Made by a program: the position numbers and the translations under genes
DNA from: a virus
Taxonomy: Duplodnaviria > Caudoviricetes
IMG/VR virus record: IMGVR_UViG_3300009566_000006
Span: 1 to 56,345 of that record
Direction: 5' to 3' (one strand)
Length of the DNA stretch: 56,345 nucleotides
Part shown: piece after piece, positions 13,988-52,348 of the stretch
Numbering within the stretch: position 1 is the first letter of the stretch
How the letters are laid out: every line of letters starts with the position of its first letter
Notes under the pieces: generated by a model
The model's input: the letters and a program-made list of their open reading frames with translations, nothing else
Database searches by the model: none
Told to the model about the DNA's origin: nothing

Positions 13988-15094
13988 TTATATAATTACG
14001 CTATCTGTATTGTGGTTTTTGGCCGTGATTTCCATCTTATAGCCCATGCTTGCCGAGAAATATCGGATTATTGAATCGGCGTAATAGTCCTGATCGTACA
14101 GCCCGGTCCCCTCAAGCCTAATTACTGTCCGGGGGGTCAAGATGTTATCGGCCGGCAGGGTTGCAAAGAGCTTCATTTCATGTGCCGAAATCGCACGTAG
14201 CCGGGCGTATGCTTCCTGTTGGGCTTGATCCGGGGTAAGGTTTGGAAGGCAAAAATAATAGGACTGCGGAGAGCCTAAAGGGGTGTTGGCGCGCTTCAGG
14301 ACCGGATCTCGTTTATGGCTGGCCCTGGCAATTTTGGTGAATCCCTTTTTGTGCTTCTGGTTCCAGGAGTGAACGTACACAATGCTGTCTTTGGAAAGGT
14401 TCATATTCCTGGAAAAATGAAAGTGTGAGCCCGTGAAAGTCGGGTAGGCGTTCGATACATCGTCCCATTTCAGGAGATAGTAATCTGCGCCGTCCGATTT
14501 CGGCTCAAAGTGCAGTTCGTCCCCCTTGACATACACGTTGAAGTTTTCCAGGGAAGCCAAGTAGGACAATAGATTCCATTCAGATCGGAACGTGGTTATT
14601 TTCGCGTGCTCAAGCTCATAGTACCGGCCTACCTTTGTGCTGGTCTTGGTCACTACGGGAGTCAGGTCGTGACTGTCAGCTAAGAACGTGGCAATTTGGG
14701 AAGACGTTTGATTCAGCCACTTTTTACTTGTTTTGGTGTCAATCAATAGGGCTGTGTAATCCCGGCCCGAGAGCTTCACTGTGCTGCGGGTAGGGTCAAT
14801 AGTAAGATCATCTATTTCTGCTTTTATCAGCAAATCAAGATCGGACTCGCTGAAGCTGGCCGGATTATTCGGATACCCGGCGTATATTTCGATTATGATG
14901 TATGTAACCTGCGCCCACCATGTAAGATCAATCGGGCCGGACTGCTTCAGGGGCATGGTGCAAAGGAAAGTGTCGGCCTGGTAGAATCCGTTGTTATTGA
15001 TTTCCCATTCAATAAAATCAACCCGTAAATCGTTTATCTTCACAATGCTGCGGGGCTGAGTAACGCAGGATATAGGATCAGTGTTAAGCTGCAA
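13988..15094 (-). CDS. Baseplate hub / late control D-like tail protein
   Basis: SGRDYTALLID...SEWNLLSYLA pattern; size and position. Confidence 0.8.
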   Translation of the reverse strand: MQLNTDPISCVTQPRSIVKINDLRVDFIEWEINNNGFYQADTFLCTMPLKQSGPIDLTWWAQVTYIIIEIYAGYPNNPASFSESDLDLLIKAEIDDLTIDPTRSTVKLSGRDYTALLIDTKTSKKWLNQTSSQIATFLADSHDLTPVVTKTSTKVGRYYELEHAKITTFRSEWNLLSYLASLENFNVYVKGDELHFEPKSDGADYYLLKWDDVSNAYPTFTGSHFHFSRNMNLSKDSIVYVHSWNQKHKKGFTKIARASHKRDPVLKRANTPLGSPQSYYFCLPNLTPDQAQQEAYARLRAISAHEMKLFATLPADNILTPRTVIRLEGTGLYDQDYYADSIIRYFSASMGYKMEITAKNHNTDSVII

Positions 15095-30971: not shown

Positions 30972-32075
30972 ATGGCTCACAATATCGCAAACATCAGCGG
31001 ACAAGACGCAGTATTCACAGGCAGGGGAATCCCCGCATGGCATGCTCTCGGAAAAACGATTGAGGGGGTTGCTACCTGGAAAGAAGCTATTGAACTTGCT
31101 GGTCTGAATTGGAGAGTTGAGAAACGCAGCCTTTACAATGACCGGGGGGAAGCGGTCCCCGCTTATGGGATCTTCCGGGACATGGACAATGCTTTTTTAG
31201 GGACTGTTGGGGAGAGATACCAGAGCATACAGAATCAAGACGCTTTTGAATTTGTAGACGCCCTAATCGGCAATGAGGAAGCACACTATGACACCGCGGG
31301 GGCGTTAGGTAATGGTGAAGTGATTTTCTGTTCGGCTTACCTTCCAAGTGCAGGTTTTGAAGTTGTCCCCGGCGACATTCACCAGACCTATTTACTTTTC
31401 AAAACTTCCCATGATGGATCACTCGCGGCAGTCTCCAAATTAACGGATGTAAGAGTAGTTTGCCAGAATACCTTGAACCAGGCACTTAGAAATGGCGGAA
31501 ACGCGGAAATTAAAATCAAGCACACGAAGAACGCCGTTGAAAGGATGGAACTTGCAAAAAAGCTGGTTGCTTCCGGGCGTAAGACTGCCGATCAAATCAG
31601 GAACAAATTCCGGGAACTCTCACAGAAAGTTGTTACACGCCCGGCCCTTGAAGATATCCTTAAAAAGCTTTTCCCCGCTGATGAAAAGGGGAACCTGCAC
31701 ACAAAAACGCAGAACAATATAACCGATATTCTGAACCTGTACGAATCAAACGACAATAACGCTTTTCCGGAAATCCGCGGGACTGCCTACAATCTCATCA
31801 ACGCAATTACTGAGTACACGGATAAGGTCCGGACTGCAAGAGGGGGCGGCATTGAGGGGATGAATCAGGCACGGGCAACGTCGGCACTGTTCGGGTCCGG
31901 GGACACTTTCAAACAGGTTGCCTTTGATACCATTTACCAGGCGGCAAGCGGCATGCCCGACAAATCGAAACAGGTCTTTTATGCTCCCGGTCCGATTGAT
32001 GATAACGACGGCAACAGCACACAGGACAAGGGGAACAATCCTATAGATGCACTTTCACAGATTGTTGATTTCTAA
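30972..32075 (+). CDS. DUF932/DUF945 (TIGR03299-like) phage/plasmid protein
   Basis: PAWHALG, AGLNW, TAGAL, SHDGS, RVVCQNT and NAITEY motifs. Confidence 0.9.
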   Translation: MAHNIANISGQDAVFTGRGIPAWHALGKTIEGVATWKEAIELAGLNWRVEKRSLYNDRGEAVPAYGIFRDMDNAFLGTVGERYQSIQNQDAFEFVDALIGNEEAHYDTAGALGNGEVIFCSAYLPSAGFEVVPGDIHQTYLLFKTSHDGSLAAVSKLTDVRVVCQNTLNQALRNGGNAEIKIKHTKNAVERMELAKKLVASGRKTADQIRNKFRELSQKVVTRPALEDILKKLFPADEKGNLHTKTQNNITDILNLYESNDNNAFPEIRGTAYNLINAITEYTDKVRTARGGGIEGMNQARATSALFGSGDTFKQVAFDTIYQAASGMPDKSKQVFYAPGPIDDNDGNSTQDKGNNPIDALSQIVDF

Positions 32076-32164
32076 TTGCAGAAGGGTCCAGGGGGATCAA
32101 GTTCCCTGGATTAATGCACAAGCCCGGTCCTAAGTCCGGGCGATATGAAAGGGGGACCATAACA

Positions 32165-46797: not shown

Positions 46798-47043
46798 TTA
46801 CCCCCTTCTGATAAAAATGCCGTATGTGTTGCTTGATGGATCAATGCCTGGCCTACCGTTGTACTCGCTTATTATATTGTTGCTGTGGGCTTGTAATGCT
46901 GCCTGGCCCTGCGGAGATTTAAGCCAGTTCTGGAATTCTTCCCTGTTCATACGCATTTCAATTCTCAGTTCCAGAAGAAAACATTTCAGCCACTTTTTAT
47001 AATCAAACCCTTGTCTCAAATATGCACCTGTCCCTTGTCTCAA
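46798..47043 (-). CDS. Hypothetical protein, first gene of the leftward early operon
   Basis: ORF start lies in the 24-bp duplication next to a palindrome copy; start uncertain. Confidence 0.4.
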   Translation of the reverse strand: MRQGTGAYLRQGFDYKKWLKCFLLELRIEMRMNREEFQNWLKSPQGQAALQAHSNNIISEYNGRPGIDPSSNTYGIFIRRG

Positions 47044-47055
47044 ATATGCACCTGT
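47008..47055. repeat. Perfect 24-bp tandem duplication
   Basis: CCCTTGTCTCAAATATGCACCTGT x2. Confidence 0.95.
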
Positions 47056-47273
47056 GCTTATAATTGGGTAAAAAAAATGGAACTTCCTTACTGCTTATGT
47101 CTTTATTGACATAATTGTTAAGCTTTGTATATCTGGTCACGTTTTTATTAGTGTTTGTATATTGCGATAAAGTATATACATAAGATATCAGCATAAATAA
47201 TATGGCACCCGTGCTTATGCGGACCCATAAAAAAACGGACTAATATCTAATCCGTTTTCCTATGGGAGCCGCT

Positions 47274-47678
47274 TTAAGATTTCTTCCAATGCTTTGCGAG
47301 TTTTTTAATGTGATTCAAAAAGTCCGGATCATCTACAATCTGGCCGAACAAATCCAGGTTAGCACGAATCTTTGAATCACGATTAATCGCTTTCTTTTGG
47401 TCTTCTGAAAATTTTTTTCCTGTCCTTTTCTCGAAATCCTGCGGCATTAAACTAAGACCTCCCAACAGATTAATAAAGTAGTAGGCGGAAATGTCTCGCG
47501 TACCGTTATTGAATTCGCTATGCCTTCTATAAGGTGTACTCTGGTTGGGAAATGATTTCTCCATCCATTCTACAACGCCTAGCCCCTGCTTAGATGCTTC
47601 AGCCTTGAGATCGGGCCAAAACTCATTAAAGTTTACCTCTGGTTTTCGTGAGGCCCTTTTAGCTTTAGGCTTTTCCAT
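47274..47678 (-). CDS. Putative phage repressor (divergent XRE-like HTH)
   Basis: HSEFNNGTRDIS resembles an XRE recognition helix; flanked on both sides by palindrome copies. Confidence 0.55.
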   Translation of the reverse strand: MEKPKAKRASRKPEVNFNEFWPDLKAEASKQGLGVVEWMEKSFPNQSTPYRRHSEFNNGTRDISAYYFINLLGGLSLMPQDFEKRTGKKFSEDQKKAINRDSKIRANLDLFGQIVDDPDFLNHIKKLAKHWKKS

Positions 47679-47774
47679 TTCTCTTACCCCGCATGTGTAG
47701 TTTTAGGTTCAAACCATTTACCCCGTTGACGTGATCGGAAGGATATCAAAGCGAAAAATTAAATGCAAGCCAAA

Positions 47775-47864
47775 ATAAGCACCCTTGCCAATAAACTGAT
47801 ATAAAATAAATCGGCACCTGTGCGTATTTTTGGCTTGACTTGTATAGGCACCCCTGCTTATAAT
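47775..47864 (+). promoter_or_regulatory. Sigma70 promoter with three palindromic operators
   Basis: TTGACT(47835)-18 bp-TATAAT(47859); palindromes at 47775, 47810 and 47844, the last between -35 and -10. Confidence 0.8.
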
Positions 47865-47950
47865 CCGTCCCGCGTTTGAGAAATGAGTTTTTAACCATTC
47901 ACCTTTTTCTATAGGAGGCCGCATGAGGTAGAGATTCAATCATTTGTAAC

Positions 47951-48006
47951 ACCCCTGACGAGCCGGTGAGATTCCGGCGAAATCCCCTGGATACGGGGGA
48001 TCGGGT
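47951..48006 (+). ncRNA. Hammerhead ribozyme, type I
   Basis: Stem I ACCC/GGGT; CTGACGA core; stem II GCCGG/CCGGC; GAAA; stem III TCCCCT/GGGGGA; AUC cleavage triplet (cut after 48002). Confidence 0.88.
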
Positions 48007-48054
48007 TAAAAAAGTTTTGTTCTTTCCATTCTCTATACTGAATTGTTTGCTTAG

Positions 48055-48650
48055 TCCAGAAACGGCAGCATTCCTAATTGAAAGGGAAATGGCTCCCGGA
48101 AGTGTAGCGGCGGTAATTCGGTTGTAAAAAGGGAAACCTTCTGAGGCTCTTATAATAGTCAGGGTGCGGCAAGTCCTATATCCCGTTGCTGGCCGTCTTC
48201 GGATCGTTGGCAGGCTTGAAGGGTAAGGAAGCGGGGAAGATTACAGTAAATTTAGCCGGACATTTGGAGTGGTAGAGGTGGGTAGCCGAAAGGCTTTGAT
48301 GTAAATGCCCGGCTCAGTTCGACCGGTCGGGGAACACAGATTAAGGTTATTTGAGCTTTCCTTTTTCTGATAGTACCCGGCCTACTTTAAGCTCTTTTGA
48401 ATATGGCCGGGAAGCTGGTGCAAGCAAACCGCTTTAATACATGCGGTCCAGGTGACGAAAAAGGCCCGGCCCTCAGTAATACGGGATAGCGGCGTGGAAA
48501 GCGGACACGCAAATTTTTACCGTTAGGCTATCGAAAAAGCCGAGTAGGATTAGCAACCTACCTATCCCGTTCTTGCTCATTTAATTTGCCATCTGGATCA
48601 ACCTCTCAGGGAGCTACCGGGGAGCTTCGGCAGGAATGCGGAATCCCCGG
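48055..48650 (+). ncRNA. Candidate structured non-coding RNA(s)
   Basis: No ORF of 60 aa or more; successive closed domains 48055-48203, 48254-48314, 48405-48471, 48481-48570 and 48617-48650 with GAAA/TTCG tetraloops. Confidence 0.6.
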
Positions 48651-48671
48651 AATTAATGAAGGAAACACAGT

Positions 48672-49019
48672 ATGGTTAATCAATGTTGTGAAGTCGTATA
48701 TGTCATTAAGGACGATCTAAAGCTTTGGAAAAAACCCTTTTTGTCTTTATGCGGAAAACAGAAATGTCCTGTATGCCAAAGATTCAGAGAATATGCGGAC
48801 CGTAATTCTTATGATTTTTTGCAGTACACAAAAGGGAGCAAGGTTCAATGGTTAATACCTGTTAACAAAAAAATCGAAGAAACAATTACTTCATTAAACG
48901 AAAAAGACAGGATCAGCTTTGTCCTTAAAATCCCTTCAAGTAAATTAATTCCTAAGTTTGTTTGCGAAAAGGATTCAATTTCCCTGGTCCATAAACGTTA
49001 TACAATTTGGCCGGATTAG
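48672..49019 (+). CDS. Hypothetical Cys-containing protein
   Basis: AAGGA RBS; CxxC. Confidence 0.5.
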   Translation: MVNQCCEVVYVIKDDLKLWKKPFLSLCGKQKCPVCQRFREYADRNSYDFLQYTKGSKVQWLIPVNKKIEETITSLNEKDRISFVLKIPSSKLIPKFVCEKDSISLVHKRYTIWPD

Positions 49020-49780
49020 AAATGAATCCCCGTATTGATTGTTACAAATTTATAACGTCCCATGAAAAATCTTATGGTTGTATGCCTAACATTTTTCGGG
49101 ACGAAAAGCGATTGCCGGACTTAACAAAAAAGAGGTATCCGGTTTATGGCTTTCATCTTGAAATACCTGAACCAGTTGAAACTCCTGAACCTGATTTTTG
49201 TTTTGAGACTGATAAAGAAAATGAAAGAAATTTTAAAATTTCAGCAATACTTGAGTTTTCTAAATCTCTTGCAATAGAAAGGATTAAGCATCTTTCTGAA
49301 CTTCCTAAAAGAGAGAAAAAGAAATTAGAAAAACTACTTCGGCTGGAAGAAGAAATAAAGGCACAAACATACCAAAGAAAACTACAGGCCATGAGCAAGG
49401 AACTTGGGAACGCTGAAATAACAAGATTGTTTCAGGAGTGTCTTAAAGAACTTCGAGAAGAACTTAAAATAGATGATTACGAAATGCAAGCAATGGACTA
49501 TTCGGAATGGGAAGTAATTTTAGATGAAGCAAAAAGAAGGGCCTGGAAAATATGTAAATTAGAACAGGATAAAATAAAAGAAGAAAGCAAAAAAGAAATT
49601 ATAGAACTTTCAAAATTATTATTTAAGAAAAAGAATAAGAATAAGGAACCTTTTATTGCTGATCCTAAAGAATTTAAAAAGCGCTTAAACAGGCTATGTT
49701 CAAAATTTCGCATAGACAGGGATTCTTTCAATGTTCCAGATATTACGATGTATAAAATAATCATTAATCATTATATGTAA
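49007..49780 (+). CDS. Hypothetical K/E-rich coiled-coil protein
   Basis: 257-aa AT-rich ORF. Confidence 0.55.
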   Translation: MAGLEMNPRIDCYKFITSHEKSYGCMPNIFRDEKRLPDLTKKRYPVYGFHLEIPEPVETPEPDFCFETDKENERNFKISAILEFSKSLAIERIKHLSELPKREKKKLEKLLRLEEEIKAQTYQRKLQAMSKELGNAEITRLFQECLKELREELKIDDYEMQAMDYSEWEVILDEAKRRAWKICKLEQDKIKEESKKEIIELSKLLFKKKNKNKEPFIADPKEFKKRLNRLCSKFRIDRDSFNVPDITMYKIIINHYM

Positions 49781-49791
49781 AAGGAGTATCA

Positions 49792-50070
49792 ATGCACCCC
49801 AAAATCAAACAGGCCATAGATAAAGCCAAAGATAAAACAAAACAGGCCATAAATAACACAGTGGACAAATTCTGTGTCCGCATTCTCCAATCAGACGAAT
49901 CCAGGGCCAAGAGGTTAGTTTCAACAGCCTACCCCGGCCGGAACATGTCAAAAAACCCGATCAGGAAAAAGAAAGAGGACCAGGAACAGGCGCCGACTCC
50001 GGAAAAGTTGATGGCAATGTGCGCTATGGCAGCTTCGTCTTATATTTACGTCAAAGCGCTTTTCTTTTAG
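49792..50070 (+). CDS. Hypothetical protein
   Basis: AAGGAG RBS. Confidence 0.55.
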   Translation: MHPKIKQAIDKAKDKTKQAINNTVDKFCVRILQSDESRAKRLVSTAYPGRNMSKNPIRKKKEDQEQAPTPEKLMAMCAMAASSYIYVKALFF

Positions 50071-50081
50071 AGGGGGGATAA

Positions 50082-50366
50082 ATGAAACAGCACAAATGCA
50101 CCATGCGGCAGGTCAGGGCGGCAGAGGATAGGGTTAAAAAGATAATCCGCGACAAGACTGTTCAGTACCGCGAAAAGGACCCCAAAGTACCGTGGGAAGT
50201 AGATGTTGAATGGAAGAAAAAACACCCGTGTCCAGGAGACAGACAAAGAGCCAGGGAGAATAAAGTCATTGGTTCAATCCAGGCTGAGGCCGATGAAATT
50301 CTCCATAACGCACGTATGGGTTTTCTCACAGCTGAAGAATTAGACAAACAAATTTCAAAACTCTGA
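50082..50366 (+). CDS. Hypothetical protein
   Basis: GAGGGGG RBS. Confidence 0.55.
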   Translation: MKQHKCTMRQVRAAEDRVKKIIRDKTVQYREKDPKVPWEVDVEWKKKHPCPGDRQRARENKVIGSIQAEADEILHNARMGFLTAEELDKQISKL

Positions 50367-50639
50367 GGGTTCACATGACAAACGCAGAATTAGACGAAAT
50401 CGAAGAAATGTATTTGAAGCACAGCAACACAGCTGCCGGGAAGCGCATTCTGAAGCTGGTAGAATACTGCCGGGATCTGAAAGAAGAAAACAAAAAGTTG
50501 CTGAACAATGAAGATATTTAAATCCCTGCTTTCAGTCCTGGGGATTCTCCTGACCTTGTTGGGATTAATTGTCATGGCTGTGATTGACGGGGTTATCCAG
50601 CTGGTGAAGTTCAAAAAGAAAGGCGGATACAGAAATTGA

Positions 50640-50962
50640 ATGAGAAATATATCAACGTTCCAATATCCGCAGCAAAGAGGATCGCTGAAGAATTCCAAAA
50701 GGACCAGGTTATTATTGTCTGTTGGGACCAGGTCCACGGCAAAACGCACGTAACCACTTACGGCAAAACAAAGATTGATTGCGCACAAGCAGCACAGGGC
50801 GGGAATTTCGTAAAACGGGCTCTTGGCTGGCCGGAGGAGCTTTGCCACGCTAAACCGGCCCGGATTTCACAAGAGGAAATGGACCAGGCGCAAGGGAATC
50901 CGGGAATTCATAAGCACACTTCCATATATCGTGATCCTAAGCACGTCCCTAAGCCATCGTAA
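50640..50962 (+). CDS. Conserved-looking phage protein (start approximate)
   Basis: VPISAAKRIA...DQVII...HVTTYG pattern. Confidence 0.55.
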
Positions 50963-51042
50963 TCATTAAGATATAAATTACATTGATAAGCACCCCTAAA
51001 TATAATATACCTTCCAGACAAATCCGAGTCGGGGGTTGGTGC

Positions 51043-52227
51043 ATGAAGGGGAAAATCCTTGAATTCCGTGGCAACAAAGAACATCCGATAAGATATGCGA
51101 TACGGATCTCCTGGAACGGAACAGATTATAAATTTTGGCATTACCCCGATGGATCAGGGGACCCTATCTATCACAGGGACATTGCCGAAGCTTTACTAAC
51201 ACAGGTCAGGGGCGCCATTGACCTGCATAATAAGGGGCGCTTCACATTCCGGCCTGAGTTTTATCAAAAGAAATCTCCACTATCCTTAGAGGCATATGCA
51301 AAAGTTTGGCTTGATTCATATCCGGCCAGTAAAAAAATGACAAAGAAGGGCTACCGGGCCGCGATCAAGCATGCAATAGAGTATGAAGGATTCGGGGCAA
51401 AGTTCGATATCAGGGGATTTAGCCTATCCAATCTTCAAACCTTTTATAACAAGCTCACTTATCAAAAAACAGAAACAGGCGAAAACGGGGAAAAGAAAAC
51501 CGTCACCCTGCCTATGTCCGTAAAGGGTAGGTATAACGTCCTGACAGCGATTAAAACAATGCTGCGGTATGCTTTCCGGGACGGCAAGCTTGACAAATTG
51601 CCGGCGTTCCCGGTACTGGAAAATCCCGCCCCCTTGGACACCCCTTATTTGATATTCCAAGAGCAACAGGAAATTCTTTCGCACATTCCCGAACGTCACA
51701 GGCCGATCTATGAAATGGGTATGGAGTACGGCTTTAGAATTGAAGAAGTCCGGGCCTTGAAGTGGGATTGCATTTCTGAAACCCATATTACAATAAGGCG
51801 CTCCATGCCGGAATATGAACTTTTGGAAACCACAAAAGAAGGTGACGCAAGGGTTGAAGAAATCACGACCAGGGCGCGGGATATTCTGAGAAGGGCCAGG
51901 CTAAACCCGAGTTGGAAGGGTTACGTTTTTACAGCCTCAAAACGGGGGGCTCCCTATGATTATAAATTCATGGCGCGGACCTGGAAAGCGGCCTGTGAAA
52001 AAGTAGGAATCGAAATCAAGATGTATAACGGATTCCGGCATTCATACTGCGGCCAGCTGGCAGATTTGGGAATACCGGCCGAAACAATCCAAAGGTGCGT
52101 AGGCCATAAAGACAGGCGTTCAACGGAAAGATATACCAGGCGGCAGAGAGCTTCAGAAAGAAGGGCAATTAACGAAATGCGCGGCCAGGTGATTCCTATC
52201 AACAAAAAGACTGTAGACATTTTGTAG
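51043..52227 (+). CDS. int: Prophage tyrosine integrase
   Basis: GFRIEE, YNGFRH, VGH and TERY motifs; next to the att core. Confidence 0.95.
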   Translation: MKGKILEFRGNKEHPIRYAIRISWNGTDYKFWHYPDGSGDPIYHRDIAEALLTQVRGAIDLHNKGRFTFRPEFYQKKSPLSLEAYAKVWLDSYPASKKMTKKGYRAAIKHAIEYEGFGAKFDIRGFSLSNLQTFYNKLTYQKTETGENGEKKTVTLPMSVKGRYNVLTAIKTMLRYAFRDGKLDKLPAFPVLENPAPLDTPYLIFQEQQEILSHIPERHRPIYEMGMEYGFRIEEVRALKWDCISETHITIRRSMPEYELLETTKEGDARVEEITTRARDILRRARLNPSWKGYVFTASKRGAPYDYKFMARTWKAACEKVGIEIKMYNGFRHSYCGQLADLGIPAETIQRCVGHKDRRSTERYTRRQRASERRAINEMRGQVIPINKKTVDIL

Positions 52228-52271: not shown

Positions 52272-52348
52272 TGGTGCGCCTGGAAGGACTCGAACCCTCG
52301 ACGCTTAGATCCGAAGTCTAACGCTCTATCCAACTGAGCTACAGGCGC
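52272..52348 (-). tRNA. tRNA-Arg(TCG), prophage integration target
   Basis: GCGCCTGTAGCTCAGTTGGATAGAGCGTTAGACT-TCG-GATCTAA...GCGCACCA. Confidence 0.97.

Follow-up and report, generated by a model that had tools for sequence, protein, structure and literature searches.

Introduction

Hundreds of bacterial hammerhead ribozymes near prophage integrase genes, some of them in multi-ribozyme arrangements, were reported by Perreault et al. (2011, PMC3088659), and the phage hammerheads tested in that study cleave in vitro as well as in E. coli. Prophage hammerheads have been known since 2011. The examples from Agrobacterium tumefaciens, Azorhizobium caulinodans and Clostridium scindens described there (PMC3088659) have the same canonical core as the ribozyme reported here and lie likewise in a phage or prophage setting near an integrase. 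A long polycistronic transcript is a further shared feature of the examples of Perreault et al. (2011), for which a role in RNA processing was proposed. However, these examples flank single genes or short blocks in groups, whereas the ribozyme of this study is a single copy at the predicted head of a transcript and distant from any ORF.

The hammerhead of the haloviruses HF1 and HF2 (HHphage) is a precedent for the removal of a 5′ leader, since it heads an early polycistronic transcript, and the 5′ end mapped for this transcript is no more than 3 nt away from the cleavage site (PMC3088659). HHphage belongs to an archaeal virus, has an unusual insertion in the core and is located 13 nt before the start codon of a helicase gene (PMC3088659), whereas the ribozyme of this study has a canonical core and would be followed by 669 nt of RNA free of ORFs. 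In the VIPR systems phage hammerheads cut noncoding vrRNAs from a longer transcript (bioRxiv 10.64898/2026.04.26.720920). On both strands of the window, which is the whole stretch of 56,345 bp analysed here, we looked for a VIPR array and found no run of at least four GGYNN units (GGY/NN, YNNGG). Engineered insulators of the RiboJ type carry a hammerhead after the promoter, which removes the 5′ leader and makes expression independent of the transcription start. RiboJ is an engineered device, and it is by analogy that the same insulation logic may apply to a natural phage.

Here we describe a sequence of a prophage, 47951-48006 of the window, which is probably a type I hammerhead capable of self-cleavage. 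It would lie in the 5′ leader of a prophage transcript under operator control, remove that leader and leave an RNA with a 5′-OH end.

The prophage and its host

The window is an IMG/VR virus record and contains a prophage of roughly 50 kb, which is bounded by a 28-bp exact direct repeat (att, 2473-2500 identical to 52272-52299). The repeat at 52272-52299 overlaps the 3′ end of a tRNA gene, and the host genes on its flanks show 84-95% identity to genomes of Syntrophales, Syntrophaceae and Smithella. Judged by these sequences, the best explanation appears to be a Syntrophales bacterium as host and one of its tRNA genes as the integration site. To the left of attL a second tyrosine recombinase is encoded (1070-2272), as is a further tRNA (2277-2349), which suggests a neighbouring integrative element or a remnant thereof.

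A type-P5 twister ribozyme is encoded at 32077-32139 on the plus strand (51.5 bits, gathering cut-off 37.6). Upstream, a DUF932 gene (30972-32075) stops two bases before the ribozyme starts; downstream come a Shine-Dalgarno-like GGGGG and an ATG, so that this ribozyme occupies the classic position between cistrons. The hammerhead is found on the plus strand as well, and the prophage therefore appears to carry two classes of self-cleaving ribozyme.

A canonical type I hammerhead

The plus strand of 47951-48006 reads, part by part, ACCC / CUGACGA / GCCGG-UGAGAUU-CCGGC / GAA / A-UCCCCUG-GAUA-CGGGGGA-U / C / GGGU. The parts listed here were read from the sequence.

47951..48006, plus strand: type I hammerhead ribozyme (sequence, MFE fold, sole descriptor match, model R1)
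47951-47954, plus strand: 5′ strand of stem I, ACCC
47955-47961, plus strand: core C3-A9, CUGACGA
47962-47978, plus strand: stem II, GCCGG, loop UGAGAUU, CCGGC
47979-47981, plus strand: G12 A13 A14 (GAA)
47982, plus strand: A15.1, paired with U16.1 (48001)
47983-48000, plus strand: stem III, UCCCCU(G)...(C)GGGGGA
47982-48001, plus strand: stem-loop III including the A15.1-U16.1 pair
48002, plus strand: H17, a C
48002..48003, plus strand: predicted self-cleavage site C48002/G48003, from the position of H17 in the core
48003-48006, plus strand: 3′ strand of stem I, GGGU

All positions that define a hammerhead are canonical (C3-A9, G12-A14, the A15.1-U16.1 pair and C as H17) without any substitution in the core. 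The core criteria, G12 A13 A14, the A15.1-U16.1 pair and an H17 other than G, are those given in the methods of PMC3088659, and H17 is C, i.e. not G, as expected for a hammerhead; N7 is also C. An earlier note on this DNA, made from the sequence alone, had described the catalytic core elements as being all in register, and each of them could indeed be read out at its expected coordinates. The pairs adjacent to the core are standard in all three stems (G47962-C47978 at 10.1-11.1, C47954-G48003 at 1.1/2.1 and A47982-U48001).

The MFE fold of 47940-48015 is exactly the three-way junction, with 4 bp in stem I, 5 bp in stem II and 8 bp in stem III, the latter closed by the loop GAUA. The length of stem I agrees with the earlier note, C47950 and U48007 being unpaired. 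For stem III the same note had given 6 bp and a 6-nt loop; these pairs are a subset of the folded helix, which is longer by the two further pairs. Both in the MFE structure and in the descriptor match (stems of 4/5/8 bp), loops close stems II and III while stem I is open, which is the topology of type I. The hammerhead is retained as MFE structure in the 200-nt leader 47871-48070, where no structure competes with the core. The folding energy of 47940-48015 is unremarkable (z -1.76; 13 of 200 shuffles fold equally well), and an extension that could bind a ligand is not present on the ribozyme.

With a type I descriptor, which fixes the core and demands at least 4 bp in every stem, both strands of the 56-kb window were searched. 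The only match is 47951-48006, and any match at all was obtained in just 1 of 1000 dinucleotide shuffles of the window. By its sequence 47951-48006 is a genuine-looking, canonical type I hammerhead, for which self-cleavage is predicted.

Rfam models and the annotation of phage hammerheads

A check with the Rfam hammerhead models, which had been proposed along with the hammerhead, came out negative. At the gathering cut-offs Rfam 15 reports four tRNAs and Twister-P5 in the window and no hammerhead. The best rows of a permissive search of 47600-48700 are RAGATH-1-hammerhead (RF03152) with 16.8 bits (E 8.3, cut-off 56.3) and Hammerhead_3 with 15.2 bits, both at chance level, and Hammerhead_1 (RF00163) gave no match to the window at E<=10. 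The seed of RF00163 consists mainly of animal satellite sequences. RF00163 and RF03152 have the topology with an open stem I and the catalytic core in common with our ribozyme, which nevertheless reaches neither model; for RF03152, a family with a 5′ hairpin, 16.8 bits stand against 56.3.

This negative result is a blind spot of the models and not evidence against the hammerhead. It reflects their scope, because none of the 40 descriptor-defined type I hammerheads in ten related loci was detected by Rfam either, while one type II hammerhead was reported there. As the current Rfam hammerhead models miss the phage class, routine annotation under-counts such ribozymes.

A populous class of phage hammerheads

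Viral contigs were searched with the core and the GCCGG stem II of the window, leaving stems I and III free, which yielded 67 loci. The 63 unique pattern matches comprise 41 complete type I and 17 complete type III hammerheads as well as five which are neither, three of them being cut by the end of the locus. Complete type I or III hammerheads make up 54 of the 56 unique uncut matches, compared to 7.2 expected when the flanks are shuffled. The type I descriptor gave 89 matches in the 67 loci, 74 of them unique, and many of these have other stem II sequences. On four IMG/VR contigs (L059, L068, L023 and L011) 6 to 10 type I hammerheads are arrayed over about 5-7 kb, nearly one hammerhead per gene junction, and none of the hammerheads in these arrays is recognised by Rfam 15 at gathering.

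Of the 74 unique sequences 65 were aligned (A1); those longer than 72 nt with flanks or located at a locus edge were excluded. A covariance model, R1, was built from these 65 type I hammerheads of other viral contigs, with the structure given by hand and the window left out. R1, for whose training set the stem II sequence of the window had served as seed, matches 47948-48009 over its full length (model positions 1-60) with 64.9 bits and an E-value of 1.2e-20. This match, the core read-out and the descriptor control support the earlier proposal of a type I hammerhead which cuts after C48002 (triplet AUC). A second R1 match in the window (14430-14444, 8.4 bits) is a stem II-like hairpin lacking the core and was discarded. 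In A1, 94% of the paired cells are indeed paired and compensatory changes occur at 15 of 17 pairs, but this covariation is circular and no independent evidence, because the sequences were selected by a descriptor that requires pairing.

Loop II and the flanking A residues fit the class although the descriptor requires neither. Loop II has 7 nt in 57 of the 74 class members, and UGAGAUU, the loop of our ribozyme, is the commonest form (11 of the 57). An A at position -6, unpaired and beyond stem I, is found in 65 of 74 sequences, and an A at +6 and +7 in 47 and 41 of 74, respectively; the window shares all three. It also shares the 5-bp stem II and the C at N7 (37 of 74). With regard to a possible tertiary contact of loop II with stem I or the flanks of that stem, the class retains the 7-nt loop and the unpaired A at -6, both of which the window has. 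Such a contact and the loop II class may already figure in the alignments of PMC3088659 (Dataset S1).

Stem I most often comprises 5 bp (41 of the 74 class members); 4 bp and 3 bp occur 12 times each, and 6 bp 9 times. The short stem I, to which the earlier note had drawn attention, is therefore normal for the class, with 4 bp or less in 24 of 74. In contrast to the majority of the class, the cleavage triplet of the window is AUC, which is rare (2 of 74, versus 60 of 74 with GUC), and the fifth position of stem I, usually paired in the class, is a C/U mismatch. The triplet or the mismatch could slow the ribozyme of the window. On the basis of these sequence features it belongs to a populous phage class of type I hammerheads that is common in tailed-phage genomes.

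Relatives of the host were scanned with R1 as well. No match was obtained in three and ten genomes of host relatives, and two weak matches in 151 Syntrophales genomes, both at other hammerhead-like sites; only 36-150 candidates were scored per genome, which limits the sensitivity of these scans.

L150, 1501-1565, plus strand: weak R1 match, 24.4 bits
L151, 1501-1542, minus strand: weak R1 match, 23.8 bits

By sequence both look like hammerheads of another architecture, which would mean that the host order has hammerheads besides the one in this phage. The exact pattern of the window (core, stem II and first base of stem III) had no match in metagenome contigs, and among named phages only haloarchaeal viruses share core and stem II with a short query. 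Three metatranscriptome runs gave no coverage.

The putative control region upstream of the ribozyme

The ribozyme is located about 80 nt downstream of a sigma70-like promoter, in a region which has the following features.

47274..47678, minus strand: divergent gene of 134 aa, candidate Cro/CI-type regulator (ORF list)
47779..47857, plus strand: three operator-like palindromic copies with GCACCNNTGC cores at 47779, 47814 and 47848 (repeat families D1/D3)
47835..47864, plus strand: sigma70-like promoter TTGACT-18-TATAAT (consensus scan, 11/12)

The 11/12 match to the sigma70 consensus is unique in the window, but shuffles yield 0.9 such matches per window, and the promoter at 47835-47864 is a putative one, to be taken as a lead. 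With a transcript start near 47871, about 132 nt of RNA would precede the cut. This fits the distance of about 130 nt given in the earlier note; the start itself depends on the consensus promoter with its chance rate of 0.9.

The operator-like copies belong to a palindromic 18-bp motif with the core GCACCNNTGC and the fuller form ATAnGCACnnGTGCnTAT. The window contains 12 sites (4467, 9295, 27266, 30554, 30632, 35561, 41652, 47048, 47205, 47779, 47814 and 47848) compared to 1.36 expected, and none of 100 shuffles reaches 12. They are mostly intergenic and spread across the whole prophage, and the copy at 47848 sits between the -35 and -10 hexamers of the promoter. The motif looks like the putative binding site of a phage-wide regulator. 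In 11 of the 12 sites the central CC/CT points toward the plus strand, irrespective of the direction of the genes. Four single-site matches to the operator pattern in viral contigs, whose sequences neither resemble the window nor match R1, were judged to be chance.

The divergent 134-aa gene is followed by a hairpin with a T-run at 47266-47224 (inverted repeat I1). Its product has no Pfam or PHROG match and no homologue in the viral contigs, and among 5.8 billion clusters only the protein itself was found. The look-alikes in the Atlas are HTH_3/XRE clusters with a language-model likeness of 0.91-0.93 and a weak fold similarity (TM 0.40-0.49). A Cro/CI-type HTH regulator is possible on these model-based grounds, as a lead only. 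The designation as an immunity region, which the earlier note had used, is plausible: the three operator-like copies cover the putative promoter, and the divergent gene is HTH-like, if only by language-model likeness and weak fold.

A 24-bp exact tandem repeat (47008-47031 and 47032-47055) leads into a second promoter-like copy, TTGTCT-18-TATAAT at 47034-47064 (family D2), which closely resembles the promoter in front of the hammerhead. About 190 nt beyond it a hairpin with T-runs on both strands is found (47224-47266). The stretch 47008-47266 could give rise to a short plus-strand RNA convergent with the 134-aa gene, or could merely hold operator copies of the leftward operon.

The leader between promoter and ribozyme contains, at 47913-47931 on the plus strand, an AGGAGG followed after 4 nt by AUG AGG UAG, i.e. 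a frame of two codons, 20 nt upstream of the ribozyme. At 47931-47937 of the same strand the 7 nt GAGAUUC duplicate loop II together with the base that closes it. Both are single observations and may be due to chance.

Position of the ribozyme and the integrase operon

Downstream of the ribozyme an ORF-free stretch leads to a rightward operon.

48007..48671, plus strand: ORF-free stretch of 665 nt from the ribozyme to the first gene (ORF list, GC/skew, folding, searches)
48672..52227, plus strand: rightward operon of eight tightly packed, co-oriented ORFs, in order 115, 257, 92, 94, 48, 43 and 108 aa and the 414-aa integrase (ORF list)
50983-52227, plus strand: tyrosine integrase, 414 aa, last gene of the operon, adjoining attR (Phage_integrase, 4.5e-16)

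The 115-aa ORF has, apart from itself, only one weak match of 599 aa, and for the 346-aa PD-(D/E)XK gene and the integrase no relatives were found.

The majority of the class members are closely linked to the preceding gene: 44 of 73 start no more than 10 nt from where an ORF on the same strand stops. From the cut, the next ORF is reached after a median of 39 nt (n = 69), with at least 300 nt in 12 of the 69, and 11 class members lie inside a same-strand ORF call. The ribozyme of the window is 948 nt away from the preceding same-strand ORF stop and 669 nt from the first ORF of the eight-ORF operon. Because of these distances the logic of a ribozyme between cistrons does not carry over. Its position is atypical, promoter-proximal at the head of an operator-controlled operon which ends in the integrase gene, and at this position a cut can only detach the 5′ leader.

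Proposed role and alternatives

The most likely role which we infer for the ribozyme is the co-transcriptional removal of a 5′ leader of roughly 132 nt. What the analysis shows is the motif with its statistics, its class and its genomic surroundings; the promoter, the start of the transcript, the catalytic activity and the consequence of the cut are predictions. Once RNA polymerase has passed 48006 the three-way junction would fold, and the 2′-OH of C48002 would attack its own 3′ phosphate. Hammerhead products have 2′,3′-cyclic phosphate and 5′-OH ends (PMC8782182). The released 5′ piece of about 132 nt would accordingly consist of the promoter-proximal leader and nearly the whole ribozyme and end in a 2′,3′-cyclic phosphate, and the remaining transcript would begin at G48003 with a 5′-OH. 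Since stem I has only four pairs, the products should separate at once and the cut should be effectively irreversible. The downstream RNA, 665 nt without an ORF and then the eight ORFs ending in the integrase, would gain a defined, unphosphorylated 5′ end which is independent of the position of the transcription start and would alter the stability and/or translation of that RNA.

Directly past the cut lie 665 nt without a credible ORF on either strand, the small ORFs present being unconvincing, and this raises the question whether the ribozyme instead generates the start of a noncoding RNA (48003-48671, about 670 nt) that would function in the control of lysogeny or immunity, the protein genes being secondary. 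There are phages in which regulatory RNAs are processed from the leader of a transcript. The base composition of 48007-48671 would also be in keeping with such an RNA, as the GC content is about 0.50 and the plus strand shows a G excess of +0.28 to +0.36 at 48100-48399, compared to a GC content of 0.33-0.37 in the next genes. The same can be said of the operator-rich divergent control region and of the adjacent genes, in which no repressor domain was recognised by Pfam or PHROGs. However, the neighbouring 134-aa gene may itself encode an HTH repressor, and the stretch has no match in Rfam at E<=10 beyond rows at chance level. Its folding does not exceed that of shuffles (z -0.66 over its full length; the best 150-nt window of the plus strand has -1.65), and the idea of a structured RNA at 48007-48671 finds no support from folding energy or Rfam. 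A plus-strand terminator is not predicted in 47200-49100, nor does a second ribozyme mark the 3′ end of the ORF-free stretch. For 47700-48700 no DNA likeness exists in 50,697 phage records or in the 67 viral loci, and a 31-nt match in 339 Syntrophales genomes, which R1 does not recognise, was taken as chance. We therefore regard a functional noncoding RNA as unlikely. A related and bolder proposal is to be read as speculative and improbable: the hammerhead would serve to process the 5′ end of a novel regulatory RNA of the phage, about 670 nt long and transcribed from an operator-controlled promoter of the immunity region, which would take part in deciding between lysis and lysogeny or in controlling the integrase operon. 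If true, it would be a natural example of a long phage noncoding RNA whose mature end is set by a ribozyme.

It is also conceivable that cleavage is conditional, depending on Mg2+, a factor or ribosome traffic, and that the ribozyme acts as a switch on the integrase operon. The weak stem I with its C/U mismatch and the AUC triplet (position 16.2) deviate from the class consensus in a way that would suit regulated cutting, which was raised for slower phage variants (PMC3088659), and the mini-frame at 47913-47931 as well as the loop II copy at 47931-47937 could compete within the leader. On the other hand the hammerhead is already the MFE structure of the 200-nt leader, with no competing structure at the core, it carries no ligand-binding extension, and the mini-frame and the 7-nt copy are single observations, so that a switch seems very unlikely. 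That the motif is a relic without activity, or resembles a hammerhead by chance, and plays no part in the phage, as might be thought from its single copy, its atypical placement, the negative Rfam result and the lack of relatives of the phage which could show conservation, is hardly credible in view of a descriptor match in only 1 of 1000 shuffles, an R1 E-value of about 1e-20 that includes the loop II and flanking A residues not asked for by the descriptor, and a core free of substitutions.

Compared to the hammerheads known so far, the sequence described here is new as a clean canonical member of a known phage class which occurs in a Syntrophales prophage and at a rarely seen position. With leader removal as the sole possible effect of a cut, the locus would be a simple test bed for the question whether a 5′-OH made by a ribozyme alters the stability or the translation of a transcript.
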